Shown piece after piece: positions 8,480-63,133 of a DNA stretch of 64,000 bases (position 1 is its first letter; the number at the start of each line of letters is the position of its first letter). Under the pieces are notes generated by a model. The model worked only from the letters and a program-made list of their open reading frames with translations, searched no databases and was not told the DNA's origin. The DNA is taken from NCBI GenBank assembly GCA_000091205.1, contig AP006500.2. One strand, written 5' to 3'. The DNA comes from Cyanidioschyzon merolae. Its lineage: Eukaryota. A program made the translations under genes and the position numbers.

Positions 8480-9330
8480 GGAACACTGAATGGCTCGATC
8501 TCGAACTGTTTTTCGATTCCTCTCAAAATTTTCGTTTAGCTGTGAATACTCGACATACAGAGTGCAGCGTTTGAAGCATAAGGAGTCGTACGTATCGTTC
8601 GGATTCTCATGCGTCGAGTCTGAGTGGAACCCTGGATACGCTGCTGCCGGAATTCGTTGCGTCACCGGATTCAAGATGATTCGCGATGCCCTCGAACAAG
8701 GCTTTGTGAAGCTATCGATATCATCATCCAATGCAGACGTGCAAGCATGCACTCTTTTCCATTCCCTGTGCAAAGGTCGCTGAAATCATGCGATCTTTAG
8801 GATGTCGATCTATCCGCTTCCGAGCAACTGTTGGTCGCAGCAATTCACGCCCCCCGATTGACGAGGAAAGAAGATCGGCGTCGTCCGTTGACGTTTTCTT
8901 CACAAGCTCGTGCCGCAAGTTCACTTACTTTGCCACGTCAGCTATTCGATTCCGTTCGAGAGACAAATCACTCTCTTGTTGTGGCCGTCGACGACACCGC
9001 ATACGACAGCATCACCATACCGCTTATGGGGTTTGCTTCCAAGGGCTCCCTTCTCTTCTGTCTACATGGAAACGTGTCTTGGACTGGGAATCGAGTCATT
9101 GCAGTGATCGCTTCCAGAGGAACGTACGTCATCGCTCTGCTCCAAAGGAGCGTAGACGGATCGACACATCCCTACCTGATCCCTGGCCTGAATGATTTTT
9201 CCGTGACTCGTTTCATGATGGACAACATCTCTTTCCATACACCATCTGTTGAATGGAACAGCATGTGCTTGCGTATGCAGCGAGCAGCCTACCTGCCAAC
9301 TGGGTCGCTTCGAAAAAGCAGCCCGTGATC
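8480..9330 (+). mobile_element. Decayed pogo/Tigger-like (DDE_1 superfamily) DNA transposon fragment, copy 1
   Basis: Frameshifted ORFs encode an HTH-like stretch MIRDALEQGFVKLSISSSNADVQA and then DDE_1 motifs: VVAVDDTAYDS (the DE..g region) and FMMDNISFHTPS (the [LM]DN.s.H region). The same protein segments recur at 18850-19900, 30300-30740, 40560-41110, 54100-54700 and 61950-63133. Confidence 0.6.
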
Positions 9331-10092
9331 ATAGGGCACGGCACCGGGCGCTGAGACAAAGGACGGCATCGAGGATTGCACGCTTTACCAGTCGAAGGCG
9401 TGTACAGCATGAATAAGCAAACGTTCACGCGCCACAGAGCGGCCCCCGGGAAAGGAAGCCTCGTAGACATCTGGGATTACCGGACCACAATCCAGCGTCA
9501 CCAGAGCGGTGGACGCACCCAGGATGCATACGAAGAAGATAAAAATCGCATGCGAAGCGTACATCCCAACCATCGACTATGCATCGAATGCGTTGTCCGC
9601 AGCTGGCAGCCGCGAAATCGGGGCATGCACGCTGCCATCATCACCCATGGACTGCTGACGATAAAGCAGGAGGCAAAAAGAGAGACCGGCGTTTCAGAGA
9701 CGGATCCAGGAAAGAGGAATCGGAAGCAGTCACAAAAAAATCCCGAAAATGGCAGATGCTGAATTTGATGAAAGTAGAAGGACATCAAATCTTTAGCATG
9801 TGCGCCCGTTTTCGTAGACCTGTTCCATTTCTTTCTGACATGCGCACAGCATCCCAGCGCGCTGCTACGTACTTGATACCCACCAAAGTGCATCTCGATC
9901 GCTGCAATACGTCGACCAAGACATTGAGGGCGTACCAAGGGCGCTGTGTTCATCACGCAACAAACCTGGGTCTGCGCCAAGAGCGCCTCCAGCGGCAAGC
10001 AACTGCCGCAGCTTCATTGTCTGAACCAGACCAAAACCGTCACGTATAGGTTGCAATGGCACTCGAACACGCCTTGCTCATGTCTACCTCGC

Positions 10093-12969: not shown

Positions 12970-13692
12970 TTATCGGGGTGGCATCTCAGCTTCGACGAGC
13001 TTCCCGCTCGCATACATCCATTTCCCGCGCTCTTTCACGAAGCGACTCCGTTCTATGAAGAAACCGAGGGCGCCTTCGTAGATGAGATTCGCACGAAACT
13101 GAATAAAGGATACATCGGGGCTCGCGGTCTTCTCATCAAGGACCTCCATACCCGGAAAGCGATACAAGTCGCAGAACTCCAGAATGTCTGCCTCCCAGCG
13201 GTTCCAGTCGTCCGTATAGTCCGGGTTTGTTTTCGAAGTGGTCCGCATGATAAACCCGGGTAAGCGATAGGCGAAAGCCGAGTATCGAGCACGCAAAAGC
13301 TCTTCTGCTTCTGCGGGTGCCTTTGAGTTCGTATGAAAGGGCATGCAGCAGTTCCGATACGTCCTGCCGCTCCCGCAAGCGCAGGGTATCTCCGGGTTTT
13401 GCGGGACGCGGTCTGAACGTGTTCGTTTCTTCCCAACACCATAGGAGAGGAAACCACCAAAAAGCGCACCACGGGGCAGAATGCTCCCCGAAAGATCGTT
13501 ATCTTGGTCGCGAGGCTCGTCAACGTTCCCGCCCCGGCAGGTAAGCTTCGGCACGCTTGAGCGACCTCGGTGGCGACTATGGCGCCCTGCAGCCGCTAGG
13601 AGACTCTGCCGCACAGCAAGGGCGCTTGTTCGAAGACCACGACATGGACTGCGCCCATACTTTCCCGAAAACCCCGCCAAACCGCAAAACAT
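12970..13692 (-). CDS. SEC-C motif protein of the YchJ/UPF0225 family (SecA-C-terminal-type metal-binding motif plus an NTF2-like domain), with a presequence-like N-terminus
   Basis: The SEC-C motif PCACGSGRTYRNCC is followed by EELLRARYSAFAY...DDWNRWEADILEFCD...SFIQFRANL...FIERSRFVKERGKWMYASG, which is characteristic of YchJ-like proteins. ORF 12970..14052 begins at GTG. In-frame ATGs lie at 14046 and 13692; I chose 13692 because the stretch upstream of it is R-rich and low-complexity. The true start is uncertain. Confidence 0.65.
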   Translation of the reverse strand: MFCGLAGFSGKYGRSPCRGLRTSALAVRQSLLAAAGRHSRHRGRSSVPKLTCRGGNVDEPRDQDNDLSGSILPRGALFGGFLSYGVGKKRTRSDRVPQNPEIPCACGSGRTYRNCCMPFHTNSKAPAEAEELLRARYSAFAYRLPGFIMRTTSKTNPDYTDDWNRWEADILEFCDLYRFPGMEVLDEKTASPDVSFIQFRANLIYEGALGFFIERSRFVKERGKWMYASGKLVEAEMPPR

Positions 13693-15191
13693 GGGCCTGA
13701 CTTTGCCAAAAGTTCCACAGCACACTCGTTTACGCTGCAATGGAAGAGAGACGACATTTCCGATTGCGCTGGATCGCATGAACGACGCGCGAGCTGGACA
13801 CCTGCTCCGTCGACCAGTACGTATATCGAGTGCAGGAATCGATTGTATACGATGCCCTTTGATGCGTTCAGGACGATATACAAGCATCAAGAGCGCGGGT
13901 GCATGCCAAAACAGGTAGAGAGGAAGCTCGTAGAACAGAGACGGTTGCACGAGACGCTGCAGGGTAAGCTGACCGGACCTCACATGGCAAGGCAATCGTT
14001 GGTGAGAGGCTTTCCATGGCGGGATCCCTCCAGCAACCATACGCATAAGCACATTCTGAACCGAGACTTGATGCCTCGATCAAAATCCGGAATCGTCTCG
14101 TGGCTCCTTGGCGTCCTGCGGCTTTGCATCAAGCGAACTTTCGACGGAATCGTTTAGTGGTCCGTATGTGCATTGAGATGAAACGCTGCAGATTTAGGAC
14201 GAAAAAACTCAGTAGCGCGGAGAGGCGGCATTGTACGCTCCAATGGATCAAGGCATTAGGATGTTAGGGTGCAGCCTCCCAGAATAACTCGAGCGCCGTA
14301 TCTATTCACCAAGAACAGTTTCCCTGGGCAACTCGGGAACGATTACAGTCTTCCATCATTCGACAGTGTTGTGTTTACCAGGGACGATTCCGCTCACCAG
14401 ATCGGTCCTGGAGGCAGTGCAATTTTTTCACCCGAGGCAACGCAAGCGACAGCTCAGTTTTCCATGAAATGCTCTTCGGCTGTGTGCTGAAGCCGTAGCC
14501 GCTGGGGTCATGCCGCGTGCATCTGCACTTGCCTGCGGCCTGTGTTCACATATCGCGAGGCTGCATGAGGTGTCCGAAGCGGAACCTAGCACCTGAACAT
14601 GCACCTGTGCACTTGTTCCTCGCGCAGCCGATTTGGCTCTCAGCTGAGCTCTGTAAACTGCAATGCTCCCTTGGAGGACGCGGGTCGGATACGCGCTTCT
14701 CGCAAAGAAACCGCGGGCGATAATGGACACATGTGGCGACCGAGACGCACTTTTGCGGTCGAAGCGTTCACCCAGCAGATTGGGGAGCAGCAGGACCATA
14801 CCCGGCGCTTCCATATCCTCAAATCTTGATGAAGGGAACGCGTCTTGAATAGGCGGGTGTGTCGGCGGTTTGGGGACGCTGTGCAAGCCGCACAGCCCGC
14901 TCGGATTCCCCGTTGTACCGAGCCGTCAAAGCGAGCCACCGTAGACGCCCAGCGGTTTCGATGCAAGGCTCCATATGCCGTGCCTACCGCATTTCTTGAC
15001 TGAATCGACACAGATGGTCTACTTTCCTGGACGTAGGAGCTTGTTGGATAATCCTGAGGCACCCGCTCTGGCGTGCTTTCAGGAGAACGCATCGACGAGC
15101 GCCTGGAGCGCACCGCTGGCACCGGCTAGATGCATCAGCGGCATTAGAGTTCCCACACATACGATCGGCTTTATGGACCAAGTCGTGCCGA

Positions 15192-17219: not shown

Positions 17220-17439
17220 ATGCACGCAAGTCCTTGCGCACGAGCGCTACTGCTCCAAATGTCTGGCAAGCTTGTGAGAGGCGGCAGGCCCTGATGCCTG
17301 CATAAGGGTGCAGCGTCTCTCACTGTATAAATTGTTCGTGTTTGTCATAGATTGTGTTCAATGGAACAAGAAACCTTTCGCTGCCACGGATGGTCACTAA
17401 ATACCCACGCACAGACGCCTCCAAGTCATTTTATGGCCG

Positions 17440-18850
17440 GGCACCTACGATCGGCTTCAGTTTCTACCTGCACACTTCGAGCCTGAGGGGTTGTCCCCAT
17501 GAAGTAAGATCGCGTCAACTCCACGGGTCTCAGCTACAGCACCGCACGTCTCCTGATATCGAGGGCGGCATGGAGGTCTTGGTTGAAGAACTCCTTGCGT
17601 GCATTGATGCCGGTTGAACTCACCAAGGCATGGAGGAGTCCTCGAACTCGTATCCTCTACTCCACGAAAACCTCTTCACCGTCATGTCGGGCAAACACTG
17701 TTGCTCGCTTATCTCCACCCTTCTTATTCTTCGTCACTTGCTCTTCTGCGCTCGATGGACGGCGGGACGAGAATTTTCTTCGTTCTTTCGTGGAACCCCG
17801 GGATGACGGCCCTCTACTACCGCCGACTTCCATCCCCGAAACTTTTCTTTAGATTTTTGTACGTTGGAAATGAATGCACTTGTTTATGTCCCTAGGTGAG
17901 GTCCGTCCCGGAGGGAGAGGGACTTTCGGGACAGAGACGACATGTGCACCGGTGTGCCGCCGTGTGTTGAACGCTTCAGCGATTCACCCAAAGGATCCGT
18001 CGGTACTTTTAACGATACAAAGCACTCCTTCAATACCGTTGAACCATGGAGCGTACCGAGGAATGAAAAGCAGCTCTATGCCGATCGAATCGCCAATAGC
18101 TCGAATGCAGCGGCAATGGTGAAATACCACGTTGTCCAATGGAAGGATGTCGCCAGACGCTAGTGGAAAAGTCGTCGATGATGCGACGAAGCGGTTGGCG
18201 GTCCTGCATGCGCCTTCTCTACGGGCAAAACTGAGGCAGCCAAATAATTCCACTCCAGCTAGACCAGGGGATGATATCGTCGTTCTCTTCGAATTCAATC
18301 GTACATTCAACTGGCTCCTTGCTCCGCGAATATCCGAAAACACTCCAACTGTTTGGTCCGAAAGACGTCTCATCGACTGGAAAAACAAACTGACGTCCCT
18401 CTGCTTCATTCCGATCGCGACGTTCCAGGAACACTGTAGCTGCGATTTCGGCGGAAGAAGGCTGTGTGTGAAATTGGACTCTGTTTTTGCAACCGTATCC
18501 CCGTGGTTTCGGTACGACACGAACAATCCGCTCAGAAGCAGAGACGCTGGTGTCAGCCTCTATCGTCGCTTTGCCTTTCGTAAGGAGATCAACTGGCCGT
18601 TTTCTACCATCGACAGCGAGCAGACTTGGAGAATATCCGGTTTTGACGAAGAGCGCGTATAATTGTTTCTTTCAGTGTTCCTAAAGCATCTGAGTACTGT
18701 GGTATGACTGACCTGATGGAGGAGTGCAGTCCTCCTCGCTCTGTGCAGTAAAGAGTATATATCTTATAGGCGATTCGTCTACGGTCGATGGGGTACATTG
18801 TACGGGGATTTCGATCCCCTGCTATGCACCGCAGCGGAAGTGAAACAGAA
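17440..18850 (-). mobile_element. Tc1/mariner-type DNA transposon, ~1.4 kb, degenerate (frameshifted transposase on the minus strand, imperfect TIRs); copy A
   Basis: Minus-strand ORF fragments give FVFPVDETSFGPNSW (first D region), LPLDNVVFHHCRC (the DN..H region) and LFIPRYAPWFNGIEGV (matching the LP.YSPDLNPIE box). The ends are inverted-repeat-like: 17440-17500 against the reverse complement of 18790-18850. About 1.3 kb is alignable along its length, on the same strand, with the segment 43540-44920. Confidence 0.6.
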
Positions 18851-19900
18851 ACGATTCGAAAGACTGGAAGGCGTACGGATTCATAGCCAGATTCAGGATT
18901 TTCGGTCATGCCTTCCGCGTCGCATCTTGGAATCTTTGCTGCTGGAATTCATGACGACACTGGCATTACAATGATTCACGACGCCTACGAACAAGGTTTC
19001 GTACAATGGACGATACGATCATCCAATTCAAGCGTACAAGCGTCCATTCTTCTCGATTCCTTACGGAAAGCATGCTCGAATGACGTATTATTCAGATTTT
19101 GGATCTTTCTGTTTTAAGGCAACTCGTTGGTGCAGCCATTCGCGTCGCTGGATGGACCAGAAAACAAAACTCGTTGTCGCACAGTGACAGCTTCTTCACG
19201 GATTCATGCCTACAGTTCCCAGAATATTGCACGTCAGAGAAGCGGTTCCGTTCGAATCACAAATCCTCCACTCTTCATGGCCATCGATGAAATGGCATTC
19301 CACAGTAGCGCGGCACCTCTCACGGGATATGCTCCAAGCGGTTCCAGTTTCATCTTCTTGAATCGAAAAGGGTCTTGGACTCCGAATCCAGTCATCATGT
19401 CGTTCGCTGCCCATGGAGCGTGCGTCACCGCTTCGCCCGAATGGAGCCTAGAGATATCGACAGTTCTCGATTTGTTCTCCCACACTGATTTTGCTTCCGC
19501 TGCATGCTTCATGATGGACAAGATCGCGTTCCACAAATCCTCTCTCGAATGCAACAGCGTGCACTTGTGCATGCAGCGCACAGCGTACTCGACGATATGA
19601 GCAGCCTGAACAAGCGCTTGATCGAAGCATACGGAAACGGGCCCGGAAACGAAGGAGTGCAACGAGGGGCGACTTTTGCATCTGTCAAGGGCACGTAACG
19701 AGTGATGACGCCAGCATTCACGCTGGATAGTCCAGCGTTTGGCGGAACAGGTGTCGCGGACGTATGGGAGCAACTCAGCACATCTAAGAGCCACGATTGC
19801 GCTGGACGCACCAAGTCTGTGTACAGAGACGGTGCGAATGGCAAGCACAGCATAGATCACTACTGCCATATGTGCATGAAGTGCTTTGACAACGGGTGAA
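18850..19900 (+). mobile_element. Decayed pogo/DDE_1-like transposon fragment, copy 2, directly abutting Tc1-like copy A
   Basis: MIHDAYEQGFVQWTIRSSNSSVQAS matches copy 1. The DDE_1 motifs are LFMAIDEMAFHS and FMMDKIAFHKSS. The tail ...NKRLIEAYGNGPGNEG is shared with the minus-strand copies. Confidence 0.6.
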
Positions 19901-20261
19901 AGCTACGAAATCGGGACTTGAGCGCTGCCATCAGCATCCTCGGACGGCTAATAATTCAGCTGGAGCGGAAGCAGAGACCAGCGAATCTAAACCCGGAGAG
20001 AAGAGACATGGATAGAAAGCACCCGCAGAACAACCCGAAAAAGACTTGTGTTGATGATCGGTGGACGAGTCCAACATTTTACGGGGTACGCGCGATTGAA
20101 CTACCCGAACCTGTTCTATTTTATGCTTACTTGGGTGTCGTGCGCTTTCGAGCATGAACGTGATGCGAGGCGCTTTCGGAACGCGTTTCTGCAGGGGCGC
20201 CGCGGGTCGGAACCCAGAAACGAACGCTTGAACACTTCAGTCGACGAGATCGTCGCTCTGC

Positions 20262-43073: not shown

Positions 43074-43539
43074 AATATGCTACCAATCTCTAGGAACGTT
43101 CTAAGGAACAAGACCAATAAAGTTTTTACTGTGACCATGCAATCCATCAGCCGGCAAGCCCATCACCCGGCCCCATGGGACACGTGAGCATAAGCCACAA
43201 ATCTGGCTGAACAGAGCCCAGACACGTTTCGCTTCCCCGCTCGATACGATTCTACAGGCCATCCAGACGCGATGCACCGGGAACCTGTGGCGCAGAGGCA
43301 CGCACAGAATGTCCGCATTGAGATCTCGGATCCTGTGACGGTGGTGGCGGGACGTGTCCGCGGCGCTTTCGGGTCCGTGTCCGTGTCCCGATTCATATCG
43401 AAGGGAAAAACAGCGCATCGCGTCGTGTCCCGGGCGTGCGGCGGACGCGACTCGTGAGTTTAGGGACAAAAATGGACATAAATAATCCGCGACCATAGGG
43501 TAAAAAATTTCTACCCACAGCTGGCCTCCAGGCTCTTTC

Positions 43540-51120: not shown

Positions 51121-53150
51121 ATGAGTATTATAAAGGCGCCGTTAGGACTAATGCATTTGGAGAAGGATACGTGTCGCAACGTGACGGACATCAAAACAAT
51201 TGACGTTCTGGAAGAATTTTTCAACAAGACCTTCACCCGCCACCTGATGCTTGGCACCGGGGAAACGTCGAGTGGAAATGAGCGAGCGCATGCCCTCCAC
51301 GAAAATCACGCCGAATACCGCATCAGCGGTACTCGATCCAGGGGCGACTTGTGTATTGACACCTGCGGGGCAGTCAGGTACTTCACGAACCTAAAGATCC
51401 ATTTGACCGTGAAACTCGAATGCTTCACGATACGCGTCCTGTTTGCGCTGTACTCGGGCCTCTCGCGCACAGGAATATGGGTCATTATCGATGGCATCAC
51501 GAATGATCGCCAGCACGAACAGGAGACTGAGCTCGTCGAAGAGAAGATATCACACAGGAGAACGAATGAGGCTTCTGTCATCCGTGCGGCTATGCAAGAG
51601 CATCGTGCGGACTTGGTGCTCGCGCATCCAGCAGAAAAGGTATCAGATATGAAAAAAGATGAAGAAAGATGCTGTTCCCGAGCCCTGCGCTATTTTACGC
51701 TTTTGGGCCGGGATCTGGAACGCATGGCCGAAAAGCAGCTGAGTCGCGGAAAAATGAAGATTCGGAGGAATGGAAGGCTTTCCTAATGGGTACGCGCCTC
51801 AACGTCGTTCCGATATGCAGCGCCAACTCATATTTCGTGGCAGTCTGCTCCAGCGTCCCTCATGGCATCGTGAGGGATATCTGTCCGGAGTTCGATGCAG
51901 GCAAGAAGGAGTTCATGGGCCAAAACCGGGAAACTCATTGGAAGAATATCTTCGATTTCAAACGTCTCAATACGGGCAAGAAAGGGTATTCACGGGGACC
52001 ATCGGAAGCGATGGGGCAGCCATGTGTGTACATTACCGGCGGCTGGGGGCGGATCGTCCTATCGTGCCTTCGGCTTCGCCCTCGCCGAAGCATGAAGAAA
52101 AGAAGGAGGCAGATCCTGCGACTCAGGAGGTGCAGGATAACGAGCTTGTCGCTGGCTCGGCGAAGCATGAAGAAAACAACAAGGCGGATCCTGCGACACA
52201 GGAGGTGCAGGATAACGAGCTTGTCGCTGGCTCGGCGAAGCATGAAGAAAACAACAAGGCGGATCCTGCGACACAGGAGGTGCAGGATAACGAGCTTGTC
52301 GCTGGCTCGGCGAAGCATGAAGAAAACAACAAGGCAGATCCTGCGACTCAGAAAGTGCAGGATAACGAGCTTGTCGTTGGCACCGACCCGGGGAACACAA
52401 ATATCGTTACCATCGCTGCACCCAAGCGTGCGGAAGATGGTCCTGACGTTAGCTCACGTCAGAAAGACATGCTTCTTTTAAAGTTCTAAACATAGAAATA
52501 CCATCGAGAATCGGGAATACTGAATACGAGGAAGAAAATCGAGACGTGGAATGCCGCAGTGCAAGAGCATCTGGAAGCTTTGAGCGAGCTGACGAGCCGA
52601 GGAGCGGACTTTCAGGCTTCTCGGAAATCCATGAAAGTTCGTGTTGCTCATTGGGAGGCGCTGTGGGATGAGTATCCAAAGCCCCGGTGGGCTCGTCAGC
52701 GACTGATCTTGTGCTGTGGGAAACAGGGAGCGTTCGCCAACTTTTTCAATGCGTTCGGCGCCCTCAAAGAGGACGAGAGTCAGAGGCTCGCAATAGCGTA
52801 TGGAGCAGGGCGCTGGATGACCCAAAAAGGGTGTACACAGCTCCATCGACAAGAGCGTACAAGAAGTGTGCACATCGTTTTGTCACAATACCTATCGATG
52901 AGTTCCTAACGTCCTATATGCACCATGAGCTGGGGTGCACACTTCCGAGCGTCGAGACGGAAAAGCGTCAGCGGGGCCCTGAGGATATAGCAAAGTACGG
53001 AGCGCTGACAGAGCAGCAAGTAGAAAGTAGGGCGAAAGTTCCTGGGCTACGTGCACTGGTGCGTACAACCAGTGATGGCAAGAAACGTATAGCGTTTGTC
53101 AATCGTGACTCGAACGCCGCTATCAATACCAGGAGATGTACGGTGATGGA
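51121..53150 (+). pseudogene. TnpB/Fanzor-like RuvC-fold nuclease relic, interrupted by frameshifts and stop codons
   Basis: The three RuvC motifs occur in the right order but across shifted frames. RuvC-I (G.D.G....A) is LVVGTDPGNTNIVTIAAPK, ending the ORF 51770..52489, with the stop TAA at 52487. RuvC-II ([DN]E.[YF]TS) is TIPIDEFLTSYMHHELGC, about aa 65-84 of ORF 52687... RuvC-III (RD.NAA.NI) is IAFVNRDSNAAINTRR, about aa 135-150. The zinc-finger CxxC pairs are degenerate. A 75-bp x4 tandem repeat lies inside the relic. The relic abuts the IMP peptidase gene in the same frame. Confidence 0.45.
52087..52386 (+). repeat. 75-bp tandem repeat x4 inside the TnpB/Fanzor-like relic
   Basis: The unit gaagcatgaagaaaacaacaaggcggatcctgcgacacaggaggtgcaggataacgagcttgtcgctggctcggc is nearly identical across copies. 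In the RuvC-I frame it encodes (AGSAKHEENNKADPATQEVQDNELV)x4. The last copy runs into ...QDNELVVGTDPGN (the RuvC-I motif), so the repeat is a duplication of the RuvC-I lead-in. Confidence 0.8.
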
Positions 53151-53364
53151 GACGAGACCCCCGGAGTTGATACGATCCAACTTTACGCGGCAGCCTCTCA
53201 AGGTGAACTTACCCAGGGACAAGTTGGAACCAGTAGTAGGTGGCCGGTCCAAAAAGACCGGGAGGCGTCTGCACGTCAGCGTACCGACATCCACACTATC
53301 GGCGTCGTGTATATGCGTCGGTATACCTGTTTGGTCTGTGGTAGCTGAGAAGCATGGCCCGTGG

Positions 53365-53964
53365 ATGCCTTTTTCGAGTCGTTTCTTTCGGCAGCTGGTT
53401 CGCGGTGTCAGCTATGTGCCGGTCGTGTACGTTGTCCACGATCTTGTCGGTACGATTGTTCCCGTGAGGGGTGCGTCTATGCAACCAACCCTGAACCCAG
53501 GTGCGGCTGCAGGGGAGCTACCTCCCGGACAAGTTAGCGGCAGTCAGGATGTCGTGTTGGTTAGCCGGCTTCTCCGCGCTGTTTGGAACGTAAGGCGTGG
53601 GGATATCGTCGTTTTGCGGTCTCCCGACGCGGGACCGCAGAAGCGACTCGTGAAAAGGGTGGCCGCTCTAGAGGGGGATCGCGTTTACAACCACCGCACT
53701 GGGAAGTTTGTGGAGGTTCCACCTGGCCACTGCTGGCTCGTAGGTGACAACCGTACGGTGTCCCGTGACTCGGCTAGCCACTACGGGCCGGTTCCGCTGG
53801 GACTCCTCGAAGGACGCGCAGTGGCGGTTATCTGGCCACCACGTCGCTGGCAGGTGCTCGCGACGTCACCAAGCACAGGTTTGTGGCTCGACACTCGGAA
53901 CAGCGAGGGAGACCAACTGCCAGCCAAGAAGCAAGTGCTGGCCAAGTCGGCAACTACGAAGTGA
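53365..53964 (+). CDS. Mitochondrial inner membrane peptidase IMP1/IMP2-like (S26 signal peptidase I family)
   Basis: The S26 boxes are present: GASMQPTL (catalytic Ser), RGDIVVLRSP, KRLVKRVAALEGDRV (catalytic Lys) and GHCWLVGDNRTVSRDSASHYGPVPLGLLEGRAV, followed by VIWP. ATG at 53365 (checked); an alternative ATG lies at 53146. The listed ORF 52687..53964 begins at GTG, and its first ~225 codons belong to the upstream TnpB-like relic. Confidence 0.78.
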   Translation: MPFSSRFFRQLVRGVSYVPVVYVVHDLVGTIVPVRGASMQPTLNPGAAAGELPPGQVSGSQDVVLVSRLLRAVWNVRRGDIVVLRSPDAGPQKRLVKRVAALEGDRVYNHRTGKFVEVPPGHCWLVGDNRTVSRDSASHYGPVPLGLLEGRAVAVIWPPRRWQVLATSPSTGLWLDTRNSEGDQLPAKKQVLAKSATTK

Positions 53965-54099
53965 ATGGCTGTACGTCCGGATGGTGAGCAGAGAACGGCG
54001 CTATGGAGCAGCACCCATTTCAGAATACCATACAACGGATCCGCTCAGCGAACTCGGGCGTAGACGCTCAAGTCTGGACCGCTTCGCATTGTCATCTAC

Positions 54100-54700
54100 A
54101 AGAGGTTTTGTGGGCGTTTTCTTCGAGTACGTCCTTTTCCTCGCTCTTGTCTCCGGTATTGTATACGTCGAACGATGCATGTTGTCTTGTTGGGTTGCCA
54201 GTAACCGAGGCATGTCGACGGCAGCGGTAGAGTCGCGGTATCGCCTCTTCGGGCAGTTGTGGACGCGTTTCATGCCCAGGCAAAAGTTGCCATCGATGGG
54301 TCCTCTGTATGTGTATGCAACGTCGGTGCTGCGTTTGCAGCGGTGACAAACTTGGGTGTGTTCCGGCGTTCCCATGCGTCCCCAACGTACGTTCTCCCTC
54401 TCGGAAGGGCGCTTTGTGGTACCTGTACGCCAGCTCCATCACCCACCATATGGTATCGACGGGTGCAGAGGGCTTGCCCCGAGATCGTCCTCCGTTTCGG
54501 CGCCTGGTGCCGTAAACTGCGATGACGGGCTCGTTCTGGTCGATCGCCTCGGCGAGCACCAGACGCGCTGCAAACACAAGTGCAAACGCCTCCTCTCGAT
54601 GACTCAACATGCGCTGGCTTGCGCGCTCTTCGCTCCCTGAGTACGCTTTTGGCGAAACATGGCGATGATCGTGACGAGCATCGCGTTGCCGTACCTACTC
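54100..54700 (-). mobile_element. Decayed pogo/DDE_1-like transposon fragment (minus orientation)
   Basis: Minus ORF 54092..54610 gives ...ARLVLAEAIDQNEPVIAVYGTRRRNGG..., homologous to ...SVLDDMSSLNKRLIEAYGNGPGNEG (19504..19698) and to the 30300-30740 copy. At the nucleotide level, 54470-54570 is similar to 30560-30660. Confidence 0.5.
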
Positions 54701-55039
54701 GTGGGCATTGTGTGTCCACGTGCTTCACTTGTGTGCGAGCGTGCAGTCACGGCTTCTGGGACTCGCTGCTGCTTCCGTCGCTTGCTTGCTGGACGGACGT
54801 TTTTCGCGTTCATTATCTTCCGCTGATACGAAGAGTACAGGCGCGCTGGCAGAATGCACGGCTGCTGGTCCAAGTCAAGTATGCGGGCACAAAACCCGAG
54901 CAGCCATAGCTTCGCCTGTTGCCACCAGGGGTATTGGGTCTCTGTTTGGGTAAAAGAGGAGCGCAGGTGCAGGGGTCCGCACTGCATGCTCCAGGCTGGT
55001 GCAGAGTGCATTGGAGAGCATCCTCGCGAGGCGATGCAT

Positions 55040-55370
55040 TTGTACGGGTCGTTGCTCGTCTGCGTAGTAGCTCGTCTGTGCTGTATAGGTCGTTGCTTGT
55101 CTGCGTAGTAGCTCGTCTGGGCTGTACGGGTCGTTGCTTGTCTGCGTAGTTGCTCGTCTGGGCTGCACGGGTCGTTGCTCGTCTGCGTAGTAGCTCGTCT
55201 GGGCTGTACGGGTCGTTGCTGGTCTGCGCAGTAGCTCGTCTGGGCTGTACGGGTCGTTGCTGGTCTGCGCAGTAGCTCGTCTGGGCTGTATAGGTCATTG
55301 CTCCTCTTCGTAGTAGCTCGTCTGGGCTGTACGGGTCGTTGCTCGTCTGCATAGTAGCTCGTCTGGGCAG
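55040..55370. repeat. 41-bp tandem repeat x~8 (gggtcgttgctcgtctgcgtagtagctcgtctgggctgtac)
   Basis: Successive tcgttgct starts lie at 55131, 55172 and 55213 (period 41). Because 41 is not a multiple of 3, three units give a 41-aa peptide period (QPRRATTQTSNDPYSPDELLRRxATTRTAQTSYYADxQRPV). All three minus-strand frames are open across the array (ORFs 54604..55545, 54813..55352, 54875..55168). Confidence 0.8.
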
Positions 55371-57222
55371 GGGTGCTTTTCAGCTCTGACGGTGTCATGA
55401 ATCGTATGGGAGGTTCGCTGTTGTCCTTGTTGATAATGGCGATATTGGCCGATACGCTTACGCAGTCGGTCTCGACGAAAGACGCAACCTCTCCTGGTCG
55501 TATTGCGAAGCTGGTATTCCCGCAGTTTTTCCTTCCCGCTTGCATCTATTGCTTGCGAGGCATGGTGTCGCCACTGCCGAGCGGTGTTTCCTCGATGACC
55601 GTGAAGAAAAGCGGATTCGACTTGAGCACCGAATCGATTATTTGACGTGACAAATCCAGTCGACTTTCGGAACGGGCCTGCGAACAAGGCATCAAGGGGT
55701 GACGTCGAGGCTGTCTGCTCGTCAACCCAACAGAGCGCATTGCTGCGTCCACGAGTTGCCCTGAATCGGAAAGATCGAAAACTTGAAGCATGTGAGATTC
55801 GGGTATGCCACACATAAGGAGAGAAGAAGCGAAGCAGCTTGCAAATATGAGTTGGATATCGATTTCTGTTTTTTTACGGACCCGTGTTCGGGGGTATCGC
55901 GAATCATTCTGACTCCGATGAAGGAACGCATTCCAGCGGTAAATCGTTCAAGGTAACGCTCCGAAAACACGACCAAGAATCCTAAAACTACGCGTGAACC
56001 CGTATGCCCATAGTGCTGCACTTGGAATCTTGATGCCGCAGATCCAGAGAAAAACGTTTGGATGTATCGCAAGCTAGGAAGAGCGCAAGCAGCTCAAAAC
56101 TCCATGATAACGTAATACGGTTCTAGAGACCTGCTCTGGGGCCGCGCTCCCATCCGCAGAGGCAGCGCACGAAAGCAACAGCACTAGCCAAAAAAATGAG
56201 CTCGAACGGGTTCACATATCGGCATACATTGCATTACCGATTTCGCATGGCGTGGAACTGGGGAGAGAGCATCCCAATATGGAAACGTACTCAGCCGGGC
56301 ACGCGTCTGCATCCGCAGCATATGCGCAGGTCCCGTGAAAGGACCACCTGCGGCGCCGTGCGGCCCGCGCTGCACCAGGCCAGCTTCTCTGACAGCCTAA
56401 ACAGCGCCAATGCTCCCGTGACCTGGACTACGCTCAAGGTCTAGCTCCGCAGCAAACGACGTACCTGCTGTCGCTCGCCGCCCTGAACTAAACGCACGCA
56501 CGCGTACGCGTCCTCGAGTTGGGCGCTTCACGAAAGCGACCCGAGCAGCCGCAGGCTGCAAAACGTGCTCCCTTGTTGCCTAGCGCTTTCTCACGAGAAT
56601 AACCTCGAACCGGTACGCCTTCGAAGCAAAGAAAAGCGCCTGCGAGCTCGACCTCGTATGCAGCCTATAAACGAGGCTCCTGGGGTGCTCGTTATCGAGC
56701 TTCAGTGCACGCATCGATACAGCCCCCGCCACGTTTCCCACCGAACAAAGCACCGTGATCTCTGTTGCATCGTCATGCACCAGTCACGTATCAACCTCTG
56801 CGAAAAGCAAGCTCGATGCATACAACCAACAACAACCGTACGCATCAGCAAGCAAGCATCGAAGCAGATGGCAACAAACAGTGCCCTTGGCGCGTGCTGC
56901 TGCCTCCTTCGGGAGATTGTTTTCGGACAACGCAGCAGCGATCGCGCGCGCGCGCCTCGAAGGCCATCAGCTGCAATTCGACGCTGCCTCGAAAGTGTGC
57001 GTTCGATCCGCACTACGGCGGCGCGAGCTGTCACGACTCCGGTGACCCCCAGCGAACAGTTCGCATCGAGATAGAAGTCGAAGTTTGCAACGTGGCAGTG
57101 CCAGCTTGCGCTATAGCATGGCCCCGGAGGAGGCGCCAGTCCAATGCTTCCAAAGCAATTTGTGTTTGGACTTGTTCTAGCTCGAACAACATCTGTAATC
57201 CGATTGTATCTCATTGAAAGCC

Positions 57223-59091
57223 ATGAACATGAGGCTGCTCTATCTGGCCGCTATTGTAGTGGTCCTGGCGGCGACGCTGCTGCAAAGTGCGGCCGCCATG
57301 GACTACTATCAGAAGGATATGAAACAGAAGAAGCAGTGCTACACAGTCGAGAAGTGTGTGAAGCAGGAGCGCAAATGTATCCAATATGAGAAGGTTTGCA
57401 CGCAGCCGCAGAAGAAGTGCATCCAGCACGAACTTATCTGTGTGCAGCAAGAGAACCAGTGCAAGCAGTACGAGCCCGAATACCAGAATGTTAAAGTCTG
57501 TGTTGCGTACGAGAAAGAATGCGTGCAATGGAACTATAAGGATGAGTGCCAGCAGGAGTACGTCCAACAGAACAATTACTTCTGGGGCATGAGATGGTCC
57601 AATGAGAAGAAGAAGGAGCCTGTCAAGAAACAGTGCAAGAAAGTTCAGAACGGCTGCGCACAGTGGCAGGAGAACAAGAACAAGTGCGCACAGTATGGCG
57701 AACAACAACAGAAGATCGGACAAAAGTGCTCCGACTATGTCCAGGTGTGCACGAAGACGAAACCCGGGAAATGCATCCAGTATCAGGAGACCTGCAACAA
57801 CTATCAGCAGCAGTGTGCACAATGGGCTAACGTGTGCCAGCAGTACAAGAAGGAGATCGTCTGTCCTGAACCCAAGAAGGAGCCGCAGAAGAAAGTTAAG
57901 CAAGAGCAGTACGTGAAGAAGGACAACTACGTGTGGCGAATGTACGATCAAAAGAAAAAGTATGATCAGAAAAACGTAGAGCAGCAACAGAAGAATGAAT
58001 GGTTCCAGCAGCAGAATGAGAAGAAGCAGTACTATTGGCAGCCACAGAAGACCCAGTACTACAAGAAGAATGATTACAAGAAGAATGTTTACAACGACCA
58101 GAAACAGTACTACTGGGAGCCACAGAAGACCCAGTACTACAAGAAGAATGATTACAAGAAGAATGTTTACAACGACCAGAAACAGTACTACTGGGAGCCG
58201 CAGAAGACCCAGTACTACAAGAAGAATGACTACAAGAAGAATGTTTACAACGATCAGAAGCAGTACTACTGGGAGCCGCAGAAGACCCAGTACTACAAGA
58301 AGAATGACTACTACCAAAAGAAGGACAACTACGTGTGGCGAATGTACGATCAAAAGAAAAAGTATGATCAGAAAAACGTAGAGCAGCAACAGAAGAATGA
58401 ATGGTTCCAGCAGCAGAATGAGAAGAAGCAGTACTATTGGCAGCCACAGAAGACCCAGTACTACAAGAAGAATGATTACAAGCAGAATGTTTACAACGAC
58501 CAGAAACAGTACTACTGGGAGCCGCAGAAGACCCAGTACTACAAGAAGAATGACTACAAGAAGAATGTTTACAACGACCAGAAACAGTACTACTGGGAGC
58601 CGCAGAAGACCCAGTACTACAAGAAGAATGACTACAAGAAGAATGTTTACAACGATCAGAAGCAGTACTACTGGGAGCCGCAGAAGACCCAGTACTACAA
58701 GAAGAATGACTACTACCAAAAGAAGGACAACTACGTGTGGCGAATGTACGATCAAAAGAAAAAGTATGATCAGAAAAACGTAGAGCAGCAACAGAAGAAT
58801 GAATGGTTCCAGCAGCAGAATGAGAAGAAGCAGTACTATTGGCAGCCACAGAAGACCCAGTACTACAAGAAGAATGACTACAAGAAGAACGTTTACAACG
58901 ACCAGAAACAGTACTACTGGGAGCCGCAGAAGACCCAGTACTACAAGAAAAATGACTACAAGAAGAATGTTTACAACGACCAGAAACAGTACTACTGGGA
59001 GCCGCAGAAGACCCAGTACTACAAGAAGAATTACAATCTATACGGAAAGAAAGAAAATCCATACGTTCCGCAGTATTACTACTGGGAGTGA
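57223..59091 (+). CDS. Secreted Cys/Gln/Tyr/Lys-rich protein with heptad-spaced cysteines, family member 3 (622 aa), with a long Tyr/Lys/Gln-rich C-terminal tandem-repeat domain
   Basis: The track start 57214 is TTG; the first ATG is at 57223, giving MNMRLLYLAAIVVVLAATLLQSAAA (signal peptide). Block A is QKKQCYTVEKCVKQERKCIQYEKVCTQPQKKCIQHELICVQQENQCKQYEPEYQNVKVCVAYEKECVQWNYKDECQQ, with Cys at positions 4,10,17,24,31,38,45,58,65,74. A YFWGMRW linker follows. Block B is QCKKVQNGCAQWQENKNKCAQYG...KCSDYVQVCTKTKPGKCIQYQETCNNYQQQCAQWANVCQQY. Then come 3 x 134-aa repeats of Y/K/Q/N-rich sequence. Confidence 0.8.
   Translation: MNMRLLYLAAIVVVLAATLLQSAAAMDYYQKDMKQKKQCYTVEKCVKQERKCIQYEKVCTQPQKKCIQHELICVQQENQCKQYEPEYQNVKVCVAYEKECVQWNYKDECQQEYVQQNNYFWGMRWSNEKKKEPVKKQCKKVQNGCAQWQENKNKCAQYGEQQQKIGQKCSDYVQVCTKTKPGKCIQYQETCNNYQQQCAQWANVCQQYKKEIVCPEPKKEPQKKVKQEQYVKKDNYVWRMYDQKKKYDQKNVEQQQKNEWFQQQNEKKQYYWQPQKTQYYKKNDYKKNVYNDQKQYYWEPQKTQYYKKNDYKKNVYNDQKQYYWEPQKTQYYKKNDYKKNVYNDQKQYYWEPQKTQYYKKNDYYQKKDNYVWRMYDQKKKYDQKNVEQQQKNEWFQQQNEKKQYYWQPQKTQYYKKNDYKQNVYNDQKQYYWEPQKTQYYKKNDYKKNVYNDQKQYYWEPQKTQYYKKNDYKKNVYNDQKQYYWEPQKTQYYKKNDYYQKKDNYVWRMYDQKKKYDQKNVEQQQKNEWFQQQNEKKQYYWQPQKTQYYKKNDYKKNVYNDQKQYYWEPQKTQYYKKNDYKKNVYNDQKQYYWEPQKTQYYKKNYNLYGKKENPYVPQYYYWE
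57913..59040 (+). repeat. Higher-order tandem repeat: 402-bp unit x~2.8, each made of a 168-bp segment plus 3 x 78-bp subunits (26-aa E/QPQKTQYYKKNDYKKNVYNDQKQYYW)
   Basis: The same-frame ORFs 57995..58381, 58397..58783 and 58799..59203 are offset by exactly 402 bp and nearly identical. Within each unit the 78-bp motif cagaagacccagtactacaagaagaatga(t/c)tacaagaagaatgtttacaacga(c/t)cagaa(a/g)cagtactactgggagcc(a/g) recurs three times. Confidence 0.85.
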
Positions 59092-60203
59092 AAATCAGCA
59101 GGGAGCCACCGAACATCTGGGAGCGTCTGAAACGGTGGGGGCACGGGAAAGTTTACGGATTGGCGATTGCGCCGCTACGTACAGGTTAGACTCTTGCCAG
59201 TAAACCGATAGAGTACACCAGAATGCAGTTTGCGCTTATGGCGGGTACCTCGATCGTGTCAGGTGAGTTGCAAGGCATAGGCGCCGTGGTCTATATCGAC
59301 ACAGCATGCATGCTGTGTCTCTGCGAAGATCACCGGATCCGGCGGACGTTGCGGGCACCATAACTTAAACCACGACGGCAACATGTTACCGATATGAACT
59401 GTCATCGGTGCCAGCCCGTGACCCCCCAATAGCAGCCGCATTCAAAACAGTTCCTCATTGCAGCGACCGTGCCGCACGCATTACAAGCACCGTCAGTGAT
59501 CGTATATGCCTGCTCACGAACCCGTCGATGACTAGATTTTTTTCTACTTTCCATATACCTAACGAAACTCCTGCTCACTAGTGTGAGGCATACCTCATCG
59601 GCCCACGCGTGCGACGCCGCGAACGCTCCCCGTGTGCTACAAACATCGCGGGGTTTTGCGCCTGCCCTGTACACACGCCGGGTACGGTCGGAATGGTGCA
59701 CAGCAGAGGGCAGCAGCGTCGCGGCCAGCGCCGGCGCGTAACGCGGGAGATCATTCGACGTGAGCTCCGCAACCCCCCGATACCTGATCCCCTGCCGCAC
59801 GCTGCAATGCACATCGGCTCGTCAGCGCGCGGCAGGGCACGCTTGCGTCAACGCGGCGTCGGACACGTGTCCTTCATCGATCGGCGGCGGTCTGCGACGT
59901 GTACGCACCGCGGTCGATACGCGCGCAAACAGATTTTGCAGGCATGGGACACGACGCCGACGCCGTCGTCGAAGGGAAACGCGTTCCTGACCATTCGTCG
60001 ACTTTGCCGGGAAACATGCGATGCCGCATTCGGAGCATGCACTGCTGCCGGTGACGTGTCCCATGCACGCCGACGGCATGGCACGGCGACATCAAGGATG
60101 CAGCCTCTCCGAGCGTGCGACATTGGTGTTGAAGGCGTAGCATTCGAGTAGCGAGCGGTATTCATTCACGCGTAGAGCAATACAACTGCAACCTTAGGAA
60201 AAA

Positions 60204-61133
60204 ATGATCAAGAAAACTGTTTTGTGTTTTGCAGTAGCGCTGGTGCTTTGCATCGTAGCACCGATGAAGGGTGCGCAGGCCTGGTACAACACCGTAGCAC
60301 AGCAGGAGCAGTGCTATCAGAAGCAGGTGTGCACTCAGTATGACAACCAGTGCACAGGATATAGCAACGTATGTTTGCAGTGGGGCGAGCAGTGCAAGCA
60401 ATACGAGCAGGTGTGCACAAGCTGGGAAACCAAGTGCCTTGCCTATGAGGATGTTTACAAGACCACTCAGGTCTGCGCCCAGTACGCCCAGACGTGCGCA
60501 CAGTGGAACTACAAGGAGGACTGCCAACAGGTCAAGCAGGAGCAGAAGCAATACTATACTGCCGTGGAGACGCCAGTTGCAAAACAGGACTACAAGAAGA
60601 AGCAAGACTATGTCAAGAAGCAGGAGGATCAGCAGAAGAAGGACCAGTACATCTGGGGCCAAAACGGCTGGCGCTGGTACAACCAGGAGCAGCAGCAGAA
60701 GCAGCAGGTTCAGGTGAAGAAGGTCATCGAGACTCCGATCGCCACCCAGACCTGCAAGAAGGTGCAAGCTGGATGTGCTCGCTGGCAGCAGGACACCTCC
60801 AAGTGCGAGCAGTGGACTACAAACAAACAGAAGATCGGCGTTCGGTGCGCAAACAGCGCTCAGGTATGCTCCAACTACACACAGGGCAAGTGCGCTCAGA
60901 GCGAGCAGGTCTGCCTGAGTTATGGCCAGAAATGCACGGGCTACCAGCAAGTGTGCAAGTCGTACGGCTGGCAATGGGTCTGCCAGCAGGTTCAGGCCAC
61001 TGAACAGTACCAGCAGAAGCAGGTTTACGGCCAGAAGGAAGTATACGGCCAGCAACAGAAGCAAAAGTACCAGAAGGACCAAAAGCAGTACCAGGATCAG
61101 CAGAACTACTGGCAGAAGCAGTACATGTGGTGA
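60204..61133 (+). CDS. Secreted Cys/Gln/Tyr-rich protein with heptad-spaced cysteines, family member 4 (309 aa)
   Basis: ATG at 60204 (checked), signal peptide MIKKTVLCFAVALVLCIVAPMKGAQA. Block A is QQEQCYQKQVCTQYDNQCTGYSNVCLQWGEQCKQYEQVCTSWETKCLAYEDVYKTTQVCAQYAQTCAQWNYKEDCQQ. The linker has YIWGQNGWRW. Block B is QTCKKVQAGCARWQQDTSKCEQWTTNKQKIGVRCANSAQVCSNYTQGKCAQSEQVCLSYGQKCTGYQQVCKSYGWQWVCQQ. The tail is Q/K/Y-rich. The minus-strand poly-Leu ORF 60162..61082 is the antisense artefact. Confidence 0.8.
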   Translation: MIKKTVLCFAVALVLCIVAPMKGAQAWYNTVAQQEQCYQKQVCTQYDNQCTGYSNVCLQWGEQCKQYEQVCTSWETKCLAYEDVYKTTQVCAQYAQTCAQWNYKEDCQQVKQEQKQYYTAVETPVAKQDYKKKQDYVKKQEDQQKKDQYIWGQNGWRWYNQEQQQKQQVQVKKVIETPIATQTCKKVQAGCARWQQDTSKCEQWTTNKQKIGVRCANSAQVCSNYTQGKCAQSEQVCLSYGQKCTGYQQVCKSYGWQWVCQQVQATEQYQQKQVYGQKEVYGQQQKQKYQKDQKQYQDQQNYWQKQYMW

Positions 61134-61949
61134 AAAACGCTGCTCTAGAAGCTGCTGGCGGTTTTCATTGCTCGAAATGAAGTGAACAAGGAATGTGGGT
61201 CAAGGTTTGGCGAATCCGAACCAGGGAAGAGGGCGGTGCTCTGCGAAGCGGAACAGCAATAGAAATGGAGCGACGGCGTGAGAGAGACAAGCCATTGAGT
61301 CATATGCTCAACCGGGTATAGACACATTCATTAAGTAAAGGAACGTTGGGATTCTGCACCCTGCATTCGCACACGACGCCAAAGGAGTAGCGCTCACGGA
61401 CGCCTGCGCCCGCAGGTGAACATGCACTGGGATACTTGATGTGACGTGCCGGCTGTCGGGCAAGAAGCTCTACGCCAATATACCGCCACAGAATCGGGTG
61501 CGCGTTTACGTCAGACTTTATCATTGGTGTAGGTTAGAGATTTTAATGAGTTGTATCCGCGCGACCAGGATTCAGTGCGAAAAAATCACTCAAACACTAG
61601 CCTCCGCCTTCGTTCGAAGAACGTCAGCCTTTCGGCGAATGCTGCCCTGTGTTCTCTGGGAATGCTACACGTGCACCGTAATGGGTTCCGTGTCCCAGAC
61701 ACATCAATGGCAGCATACTATGAAACAGGTCCATTGAGCTAACACGCACGTACACGCCAAAGGTCTGCTTCGTACCCATTGTCATCAACATCGGCCTATG
61801 CGGGCTTGTACTGCGAACGTTTCGATTTCCCCGCCCGTATCTCCCGCTTTCAAAACGCCTGTCTCCGCTGTCCATCTAGAATCGTTGTCAGCAGCCGAAC
61901 GACTTCTGCGGCAGCGTTAAAGTCCCGAATCAGCCACTTGCAGCGATTG

Positions 61950-63133
61950 TCAACACGTTTCATGCAGAGGCGGAAGTTGCGGTATACGCTTCGCTTGTAA
62001 TTGTCGCCGTATTTGAGCGCAGCCTCGGTGCGCCATTCGCAGTGGCGACAGGTGATTGTGGTCAAATGTTGTCGCATGTACACGAAATCTACTCGTCACT
62101 CGAGCGCCGCCCAGTGACGCGTGAGCGCTTGCGTCACCGCTTGGTGCATGAACTTGATGGGCACAAAAGGATGCATTCGATGCCGGCCTCGGTTTCCGCG
62201 CCCGGGAGCGTACCCTAGGACGACGGGCCTGTTCTAGGTGATCCCCCGACGAGAGCTCTGTGCGCTGCATGCGTCCATGCGAGATGTCTCGTTCGATCAC
62301 GGATTTGTGGAGCGCGATGTTGTCCATGACGAAACAAGTACCCGAGGAAATATCTCCGCATGAGAACGAGTCGAGAACTTTCGATTGGATCACGCTCGTG
62401 TCATGCGAAGAACACCGCATGCTTCACTGGAAATGATTTCTATGATGATGCAAGCCTGAGTTAAAGGCGCTTTTTGCATGCAAACAAAAGGGACGCGAGC
62501 CTCCGGGTGCTGATCACGTGACAGGTATCGTGTTGTTGTCGAATGCCCTTTCGTCAATGACCGCACATATCGGACGATTCCTCTTTCGAACGAAATCCTT
62601 TATTTTACAGGACACCTGCATTGATATATCGGCATGGGGTTGTGCACAGGTCGTCAAGCAACGACATCGAGCTTTATTTACTCGCCAATCCGGTGGCACG
62701 AATCGCATCGCCTGCGAGTCGTCATGAAAAAATCCGAATATTTCAAGAAAGCGTGATTTGGGCATGCTCCACGAAAAGAACGGACACCAATCGAGTCCTA
62801 TACCTATGAACTGGATAAAGTAATCGGCGATTTTACGAGCGCTTGTTCGAAGGCTTCGCTAATCATCCTCAGTCCAGTCACGTAAAGTACGCCAGCGGCA
62901 AAGCGTCCAAGCAGCCTATCCAAATCCACGACCGAGCATCCTAAAACTACGCCCTGTTCCATAAACCTCGATTGCTGCTCTCTGAATATCGAGCATATCC
63001 AGCTACACCAAGTCTGAAACAAAATATAAAAGCAGGTATCATGCAAGCAGTCCGGGGTTCCATTTTCATTTGACGCGCGCGTCACGCCTCTGCCCACGTC
63101 CGATACTGCCATTTCGGACACGCTGACCCGCAC
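61950..63133 (-). mobile_element. Decayed pogo/DDE_1-like transposon fragment (minus orientation), the longest minus-strand copy
   Basis: ORF 62804..63133 (-) gives ...GLRMISEAFEQALVKSPITLSS, matching MIRDALEQGFVKLSISSS in copy 1. ORF 61950..62420 (-) gives ...TCFVMDNIALHKSVIERDISHGRMQRTELSS...ARRPRVRSRARKPRPAS, i.e. the [LM]DN...H motif and the tail shared with the other copies. Confidence 0.55.

Follow-up and report, generated by a model that had tools for sequence, protein, structure and literature searches.

What occupies the space between host genes in a genome that, as far as we are aware, is often cited as almost without transposons and without MITEs (miniature inverted-repeat transposable elements)? 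In Cyanidioschyzon merolae, 0.7% of the genome was assigned to transposons and 5% to a 253-copy, 3.2-kb WSV486-like repeat, and eight class II relics, weakly similar to transposases of bacteria, were reported (Nozaki et al. 2007, PMC1955436). We addressed this question with a stretch of 64,000 nt from chromosome 18 of C. merolae 10D (hereafter the window), which is the part of this genome that our repeat searches covered; transposon-derived sequence makes up approximately 25% of it, and eight relics of DDE_3-type transposases are present. An original prediction made from the same DNA had described two decayed families of DNA transposons, one pogo/DDE_1-like (F1) and one Tc1/mariner-like (F2), together with an adjacent F2-F1 pair that might be a composite.

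Our results indicate that these repeats are very probably dead Tc1/mariner elements that carried a Fanzor1 nuclease, together with their deletion derivatives; the repeats comprise the internally deleted F1, F2, and a branch represented by the repeat CMe-1A. This reading is carried by the domain content of the copies, a deletion junction common to F1, terminal inverted repeats (TIRs) with TA ends, the decay of the copies, and an intact layout of the parental kind found elsewhere. The original prediction had missed the Fanzor1/TnpB C-terminal remnant in which both families end, a copy of CMe-1A, and smaller fragments of Fanzor and CMe-1A.

Transposase and Fanzor remnants in the two families

Both dispersed families were recovered at the positions first reported by self-BLAST and a repeat scan (Table 1), and the bounds of the F1 copies were refined by alignment and profile search with nhmmer. 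F1 is present as six copies of about 1.38 kb with pairwise identities of 63-68%; the copies are 78-82% identical to a majority consensus, a divergence that marks them as old. The two long F2 copies, A and B, measure about 1.36 kb and are 69-70% identical. The description of two old and inactive DNA-transposon families that lie on both strands between host genes is confirmed.

Reading the protein relics of F1 from a five-copy consensus, we identified two remnants in the same orientation but in different frames. The first (LFVAIDETAF...GYAPRGSR...FMMDNIAFHK) matches DDE_3 (PF13358) with 30.4 bits, above the curated cutoff of Pfam; the first two Asp motifs are kept (AIDETAF and MMDNIAFH), and the third catalytic residue has been deleted. 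The second remnant (VIVGYGTGRGNGGGH...TTIKCHHC...CMKC...(10 residues)...RNRDLNAAINIL) corresponds to the zinc ribbon and RuvC-III end of TnpB/Fanzor proteins, and it fits the Fanzor1 C-terminal motif [TS][TS]-x-x-C4 zinc finger-x(5,50)-RD that was defined by Bao & Jurka 2013 (PMC3627910). A database search with this part returned few proteins (P0001-P0005, E down to 1e-34), while an exhaustive profile search returned 136 relatives, the full-length members of which have 680-900 amino acids (aa) and match at their C-terminal end (e.g., P0061, 756 aa). The same part aligned collinearly over 141 aa with the published CMe-1 Fanzor1 (BLASTP, E=1e-4; hhalign probability 81%). An 'AYSP' that follows the second Asp of F1 resembles the YSP motif of transposases; this is probably a coincidence, as the other frame continues the Fanzor homology at this point (YRMEQHALAYAAHSV vs FRLSQRALARAADRL).

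The F2 relics bear out the Tc1/mariner-like assignment of this family, with DDE_3 scores of 34.5 and 31.1 bits and, in copy A, all three catalytic motifs in DD34E spacing (DETSF ... LDNVVFH ... (34 residues) ... YAPWFNGIE). Within the element, downstream of the transposase, follows a Fanzor tail (REFANLDFNAAITIR) that reads NLDFNAAITIR or NQDLHAALDIR at the Fanzor1 C-terminal motif. We compared this region with the CMe-1A consensus (3169 bp), which we took from the supplement of Bao & Jurka 2013, and found that the last ~330 bp of F2 are homologous to consensus positions ~2760-3091 (71-75% identity over 2849-3083, E=3e-23). F2 retains the entire transposase catalytic core, and of a CMe-1-type Fanzor just the final ~110 codons are left. 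The RuvC-I Asp and a complete RuvC fold are missing from F1 and F2 alike; RuvC-I has been deleted in both, and hence we treat these sequences as remnants rather than genes.

The ends of the elements are consistent with this protein content. The F1 TIR (TGTCAGATGAAAATGGAACA) spans 20 nt and is 85% complementary in copy 1, a match that none of 500 shuffles equalled. Nine intact relatives end in ...GTTCCATT...ACAT(G/A)GGTG followed directly by TA, and the right ends of F1 read alike; the true tips of F1 therefore lie 5 nt outside the core repeat. The segment AAATGGAACAC of the F1 TIR recurs in the nine intact relatives and in the 28-nt TIR of the intact element L008 described below, and a TIR core (AATGGAAC) is common to F1 and F2. 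TA flanks both sides of an F1 copy in another locus (L007) and the right side of copy 4 in the window. The 5' end of F2 reads GTGTTCC...CTGTGG, followed by TA, in all three copies and fits the family end, and TA is also found at the 3' side of copy A. The 5' TIR of copy A ends at 18702.

The intact layout and the F1 deletion

Scanning JGI metagenomes with a Fanzor alignment yielded 29 loci, among them a 3757-bp contig (L008) on which TA, a TIR (24-51), a transposase gene, a Fanzor gene, a second TIR (3606-3633), and TA follow one another. The transposase is intact (326 aa, DDE_3 98.5 bits, MDNIAFHKTKK...PPYSPWFNPIE, with the 34 residues between Asp and Glu that define DD34E spacing), as is the Fanzor (780 aa), in which the RuvC-I motif reads GLDPGRVN; this motif is likewise intact in P0061. 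The same gene order is repeated in L009, L011, L012, and L029. Outside its TA sites L008 is flanked by a 23-nt inverted repeat of 91% identity (2-24, 3654-3671, 3703-3725), and the target of its insertion may have been a further repeat or a palindrome.

Both F1 relics map onto L008. The transposase part corresponds to residues 108-229 of the L008 transposase, ending at MDNIAFHK (36% identity, E=2e-22), and the Fanzor part to residues 548-759 of the L008 Fanzor (E=2e-27), so that F1 equals the L008 layout minus ~2.06 kb. In copies 1-4 of the window the two relics abut within 0-6 nt, and other samples supply independent copies of the same transposase-Fanzor chimera (L002, L007, L030, and L032-L036). 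Because the junction is the same across copies, the deletion preceded amplification. The F2 transposase is 31-44% identical to that of L008, the unusual PWFN motif included. Together with the presence of DDE_3 alone in F1 and its alignment to this intact relative, these comparisons point to F1 and F2 as sister lineages of one kind rather than members of two superfamilies.

The lineage as we envisage it would have moved by cut-and-paste, with a DDE_3 transposase of the DD34E type, TIRs of ~27 bp, insertion at TA, and a Fanzor1 passenger downstream of the transposase. F1 would have arisen through a single internal deletion that extends from ~10 residues past the second catalytic Asp to about residue 548 of the Fanzor and leaves both TIRs in place, and CMe-1A would represent a Fanzor-bearing branch. 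Since F1 lacks the third catalytic residue, we infer that its movement required a full-length element acting in trans; as a non-autonomous element it would have been copied by the transposase of such a relative, reaching six copies or more in the window and additional ones in related populations. By analogy with TnpB, the Fanzor may once have promoted retention of the element. Two contigs from a hot-spring metagenome (L034 and L036; 4268-5351 and 7076-7981) carry two F1-type copies ~1.7 kb apart; this pairing and the presence of six copies within 55 kb of the window suggest a preference of F1 for insertion close to the donor site.

Several observations weigh against this account and call for some caution. 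The F1 consensus scores 25.7 bits against PF07282 (Cas12f1-like_TNB), just below the cutoff of 26.3, and none of the solved structures of Fanzor or TnpB matched the Fanzor remnants by sequence. L008 is only 36-38% identical to F1 at the protein level, such that it displays the architecture and not the actual ancestor; the window itself contains no full-length parent of F1 or F2. The F1 breakpoint is placed only to ~30 nt, as two reading frames overlap there. TA is intact at four of 13 F1 flank positions in the window, where we estimate that ~5% would carry it by chance; the others are mostly CA, TG, or GA, and most of them are one change away from TA. The F2 TIRs, previously called recognisable, do not form a significant pair within single copies in shuffle tests and become convincing only against the intact relatives. 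Lastly, all F2 copies share a stretch of DNA beyond the 5' TIR (R160, see below) that does not fit simple transposition of F2. Target-site duplication was also sought by an empty-site comparison, in which no empty site was found; syntenic metagenome contigs 99.5% identical to the window share its insertions.

Associations of this type have precedents. Fanzor1 proteins are known from Mariner elements, for example the Pythium ultimum elements PUl-1 and PUl-2 (Bao & Jurka 2013, PMC3627910). Associations of Fanzor1c with Mariner/Tc1 have been reported (Jiang et al. 2023, PMC10530073). The layout of these elements is that of L008 (TA, TIR, DDE_3-type transposase, same-strand Fanzor1, TIR, TA; ~3.6 kb), and pairwise comparison gives collinear alignments of the transposase relics of F1 and F2 to the transposase of PUl-1 (E=0.013 and E=2e-5, respectively). 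The window copies differ from PUl-1 in being internally deleted and dead, and similarity is low (23-27%); moreover, the Fanzor lineage of F1, with P0061 and L008 as its nearest members, is distinct from those of PUl-1 and CMe-1. In its retained ends, its loss of the middle at one common breakpoint, and its probable amplification in trans, F1 resembles the derivation of Ds from Ac and deleted mariner elements. Unlike these, the F1 deletion joins two genes, a transposase and a passenger nuclease, and at 1.38 kb the product is too long for a MITE.

The F2-F1 junction and competing readings

F2 copy A directly adjoins F1 copy 2, as had been predicted, and the boundary can be placed at 18865/18866: homology shared among F2 copies stops at 18865, and F1 copy 2 begins at 18866-18868, at about position 108 of the F1 consensus. 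The sequence between the TA-flanked 5' TIR of F2 and this boundary is R160, which occurs in all three F2 copies, terminates at one and the same base (18865, 44932/3, and 36252/3), and has diverged as much as F2 itself (given as 70% divergence). We found no further copy of R160 and no match to it in CMe-1A or the fetched loci, and no shared flank extends past the F2+R160 block on either side. By eye R160 is tempting as an F1-like left end or TIR; this likeness was not significant. Nesting of F2 copy A within F1 copy 2 was also rejected, as F1 positions 1-107 were not detected to the left of F2 copy A by BLAST, by Smith-Waterman alignment with shuffles, or by nhmmer, which leaves the earlier suggestion that one element inserted into the other without the missing 107 bp on the far side of F2. 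The abutment is thus real, and neither insertion of one element into the other nor a composite that transposed once is demonstrated.

Three possibilities for this junction are co-mobilisation of the flank through a cryptic outer end, copying of a block, and an insertion after which F1 positions 1-107 were lost; the three decayed F2 copies do not separate them. One may postulate that the F2+R160 copies arose not by normal TIR-to-TIR transposition but by segmental or ectopic copying of F2 and the flank next to it, or by an aberrant transposition event that made use of a cryptic outer end. The ~160 bp shared beyond a TA-flanked TIR, with equal divergence and the same terminal base in three copies, would be explained in this way, as would fragment C, which comprises only 57 bp of F2 plus R160. 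However, the block shares no flanking DNA beyond its limits on either side, its left boundary coincides with the 3' end of F2, and the outer end of R160 is not significantly TIR-like. With so few copies for comparison, we regard this origin as possible and somewhat doubtful.

The reading put forward originally, in which F1, as a pogo/Tigger-like (DDE_1) family, has no relation to F2 and in which F2 copy A and F1 copy 2 moved as one unit, now appears very improbable. It would account for the lack of any DNA-level cross-match between F1 and F2 in self-BLAST and for the contact of the two copies, and pogo/Tigger elements do belong to the same broad IS630-Tc1-mariner superfamily, with TA insertion and short TIRs. 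Those elements are nevertheless characterised by DDE_1 and a CENP-B-like DNA-binding domain, and a Pfam scan of the F1 consensus frames (E<=1) returned only DDE_3 and the TnpB zinc ribbon, with no DDE_1 (PF03184) and no CENP-B/Tc5-type helix-turn-helix. The F1 and F2 transposases align to the same intact DDE_3 protein, the 98.5-bit transposase of L008, and share a TIR core, and we therefore correct the pogo label. The composite fares no better, since F2 copies B and C are accompanied by R160 and not by F1, and the unit common to the three copies is F2 plus ~160 bp.

Still less likely is a scenario in which F1 was a natural fusion gene, whose product combined the DNA-binding and partial catalytic regions of a transposase with the zinc-finger and RuvC-III tail of a Fanzor and once functioned as a chimera. 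The constancy of the junction in all copies would agree with this, and one decayed copy from another sample (P0005) does read through both parts in a single frame; in the consensus the parts lie in different frames, however, and the product would be missing the transposase's third catalytic residue as well as the nuclease RuvC-I. Among 5.8 billion proteins there was no intact copy, only decayed relics, and the intact relatives encode the two proteins in separate open reading frames (ORFs). That the repeats are fragments of a host gene family can be practically dismissed: a separate family of paralogous ORFs is indeed present at 39-61 kb, but in F1 the TIRs are significant and TA flanks occur, the DNA on either side is unrelated, and copies have both orientations, stops run throughout all copies, and the protein matches are to transposases and Fanzors.

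Table 1 Mobile-element features of the window. Coordinates are positions in the 64,000-nt stretch.
Feature	Position	Strand	Description
F1 copy 1	8460-9846	+	Full length, 1387 bp
F1 copy 1, TIR cores	8466-8485, 9821-9840		0/500 shuffles as good
F1 copy 1, relics	~8625-9247; ~9253-9678	+	DDE_3 transposase; Fanzor C-terminal
F1 copy 2	18866-20137	+	Lacks consensus positions 1-107
F1 copy 2, relics	18923-19543; 19546-19983	+	Transposase; Fanzor
F1 copy 3	30084-31471	-	Full length; transposase relic 31308-30681, Fanzor relic 30681-30222
F1 copy 4	40202-41568	-	Full length; transposase relic 41389-40791, Fanzor relic 40791-40348
F1 copy 5	54012-56130	-	In two parts: 5' 56130-55552, 3' 54598-54012
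F1 copy 5, insert	54599-55551		954 bp replacing ~220 bp of the middle of the copy
F1 copy 6	61702-63081	-	Full length; transposase relic 62911-62301, Fanzor relic 62242-61853
F2 copy A	17346-18702	-	5' TIR ends at 18702; TA at 18703-18704 and 17344-17345
F2 copy A, relics	~18650 down to 17850; 17740-17406	-	DDE_3 transposase; CMe-1-type Fanzor C-terminal
F2 copy B	~43453-44772	-	TA at 44773-44774, followed by R160
F2 fragment C	36035-36253	-	219 bp: terminal 57 bp of F2 5' end (36035-36091), TA (36092-36093), then R160
R160 copies	18705-18865, 44775-44933, 36094-36253		~160 bp, outside the TA-flanked 5' TIR of F2
CMe-1A copy	49973-53279	+	Near full-length, decayed; 81-84% identical to consensus positions 5-3091
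CMe-1A fragment	37721-37895	+	Consensus 85-257 (TE-N2_CMe part), 79% identity
CMe-1A fragment	59909-59995	+	Consensus 648-734, 79% identity
Fanzor1 C-terminus-like fragment	13798-14070	+	CMe-1 protein residues 581-673, 38% identity, E=1e-11

CMe-1A, decay and neighbouring sequence

CMe-1A was described as an unclassified repeat of ~150 copies that are ~80% identical to their consensus and have no TIRs (Bao & Jurka 2013, PMC3627910), and it is probably the same as the 253-copy, 3.2-kb WSV486-like repeat of Nozaki et al. 2007. The copy in the window matches residues 1-729 of 734 at the protein level and retains RuvC-I (VVGTDPGNTN, present but decayed), RuvC-II (IDEFLTS), and RuvC-III (NRDSNAAIN). 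Just upstream of RuvC-I, a 75-bp segment (consensus 2120-2196) is repeated about four times at 52081-52381 with 95% identity, and this tandem repeat is much younger than the copy that contains it. CMe-1A and F2 have homologous tails and belong to the same age class (~80% to consensus). They differ in that CMe-1A lacks TIRs, whereas F2 has a DDE_3 transposase and TA-flanked ends of the family type around the same Fanzor tail. Given that a CMe-1-type Fanzor tail lies inside F2, CMe-1A may descend from a Tc1/mariner-type element such as F2. It is conceivable, and we put it forward tentatively, that CMe-1A, which as the main repeat accounts for ~5% of the genome and has stood unclassified since 2007/2013, branched off the Tc1/mariner-Fanzor1 lineage as a TIR-less form, with the ancestral state kept by F2. 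A common terminus of F2 and CMe-1A past consensus position 3091 was considered and rejected, as similarity there is only borderline (55-72 of 1000 shuffles were as good, p ~0.05).

Guide RNAs of TnpB and Fanzor proteins are encoded at the 3' end of the nuclease gene and the right end of the element. F1 and F2 retain this region, in the manner of the omega-RNA of IS605/IS607 TnpB and the Fanzor guide RNA (fRNA); unlike in those systems, no consensus structure or covarying pair was found in seven F1 copies, nor a consensus fold in nine intact relatives, with decay and poor alignability limiting the power of both comparisons. The fold of the F1 consensus is no better than that of shuffles (z=-1.0), and scans with Rfam and for tRNA returned no match. 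Short right-end motifs (ACTTTAG...TACGCC) are conserved from the intact relatives to F1, and they could be transposase-binding or RNA elements. A very improbable scenario would be that the short elements, rather than being just random deletion products, kept the Fanzor 3' end and the right end with these motifs as a guide-RNA source, parasitising the transposase as well as the RNA-guided nuclease of full-length partners, with the nuclease cutting emptied donor sites and repair restoring the elements.

All copies are decayed, with five to 26 stop codons per sense frame, and between-copy scores are alike in all six reading frames, which indicates neutral decay. Hypermutation resembling repeat-induced point mutation was considered and rejected because of the symmetry of the substitutions (A>G 174, G>A 165, C>T 150, T>C 144). 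Relative to natural populations that are 99.5% identical, the elements show 3.6-5.2 differences per kb, other non-coding DNA 5.8-6.7, and coding DNA 1.7-3.8, rates that at low power are consistent with an absence of constraint on the elements. F1, F2, and the CMe-1A copy fall into one age class, ~20% from consensus, which suggests one ancient period of activity, all of these elements now being dead. The insertions of the window also occur in metagenome contigs that have 99.4-99.6% identity to it.

The window has a GC content of 50-59% and long ORFs without introns, four of which are identical to C. merolae 10D proteins, including BAM82521 (Mrp/HCF101-like), BAM82523 (oligoendopeptidase F), and BAM82533 (CMR324C); an exact database look-up of a 571-aa ORF returned no match. 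In one ORF (52687-53964), the CMe-1A copy contributes its decayed Fanzor tail, in frame with a signal peptidase I (Peptidase_S26) gene; this is a hybrid of relic and gene, and an internal Met is probably the start of the real gene. A 358-aa SEC-C-motif ORF on the minus strand (12973-14046) covers the Fanzor fragment of the opposite strand; because the NCBI protein has only 240 aa, the 358-aa form that some collections list may extend too far.

Four paralogous ORFs (39055-39891 and 42165-43079 on the minus strand, 57199-59088 and 60198-61130 on the plus strand), each adjoining a transposon relic, share 30-44% aa identity and have no Pfam match. The third continues into a long coding tandem array (57916-59031) with periods of 78 bp and 402 bp, and an inverted DNA match between 42794-42971 and 60498-60318 is part of the same family. 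Other tandem repeats lie next to or within F1 copies. Immediately left of copy 1, a 77-bp repeat (7983-8205, 2.9 units, 95% identity) aligns with same-species metagenome contigs in a shifted register, which suggests variation in copy number, and the insert of copy 5 contains a 41-bp array of ~8-12 units (54959-55450) that reads as a 313-aa minus-strand ORF. Ancient segmental duplication of ~10-kb blocks as the cause of the regular spacing of F1 was rejected, as there is no other paralogy between blocks.

The presence of Fanzor1 in Mariner/Tc1 elements was already established (PMC3627910, PMC10530073), and the elements described here are a further case that leaves knowledge of the mechanism unchanged. 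For C. merolae, the DDE_3 relics gain an identity as Tc1/mariner-Fanzor1 elements and their deletion derivatives. These results also provide a testable link between the unclassified Fanzor repeat CMe-1A and a TA-inserting, TIR-bounded transposase lineage, and intact relatives of the L008 type, with a 326-aa transposase and a 780-aa Fanzor, are open to experiment.

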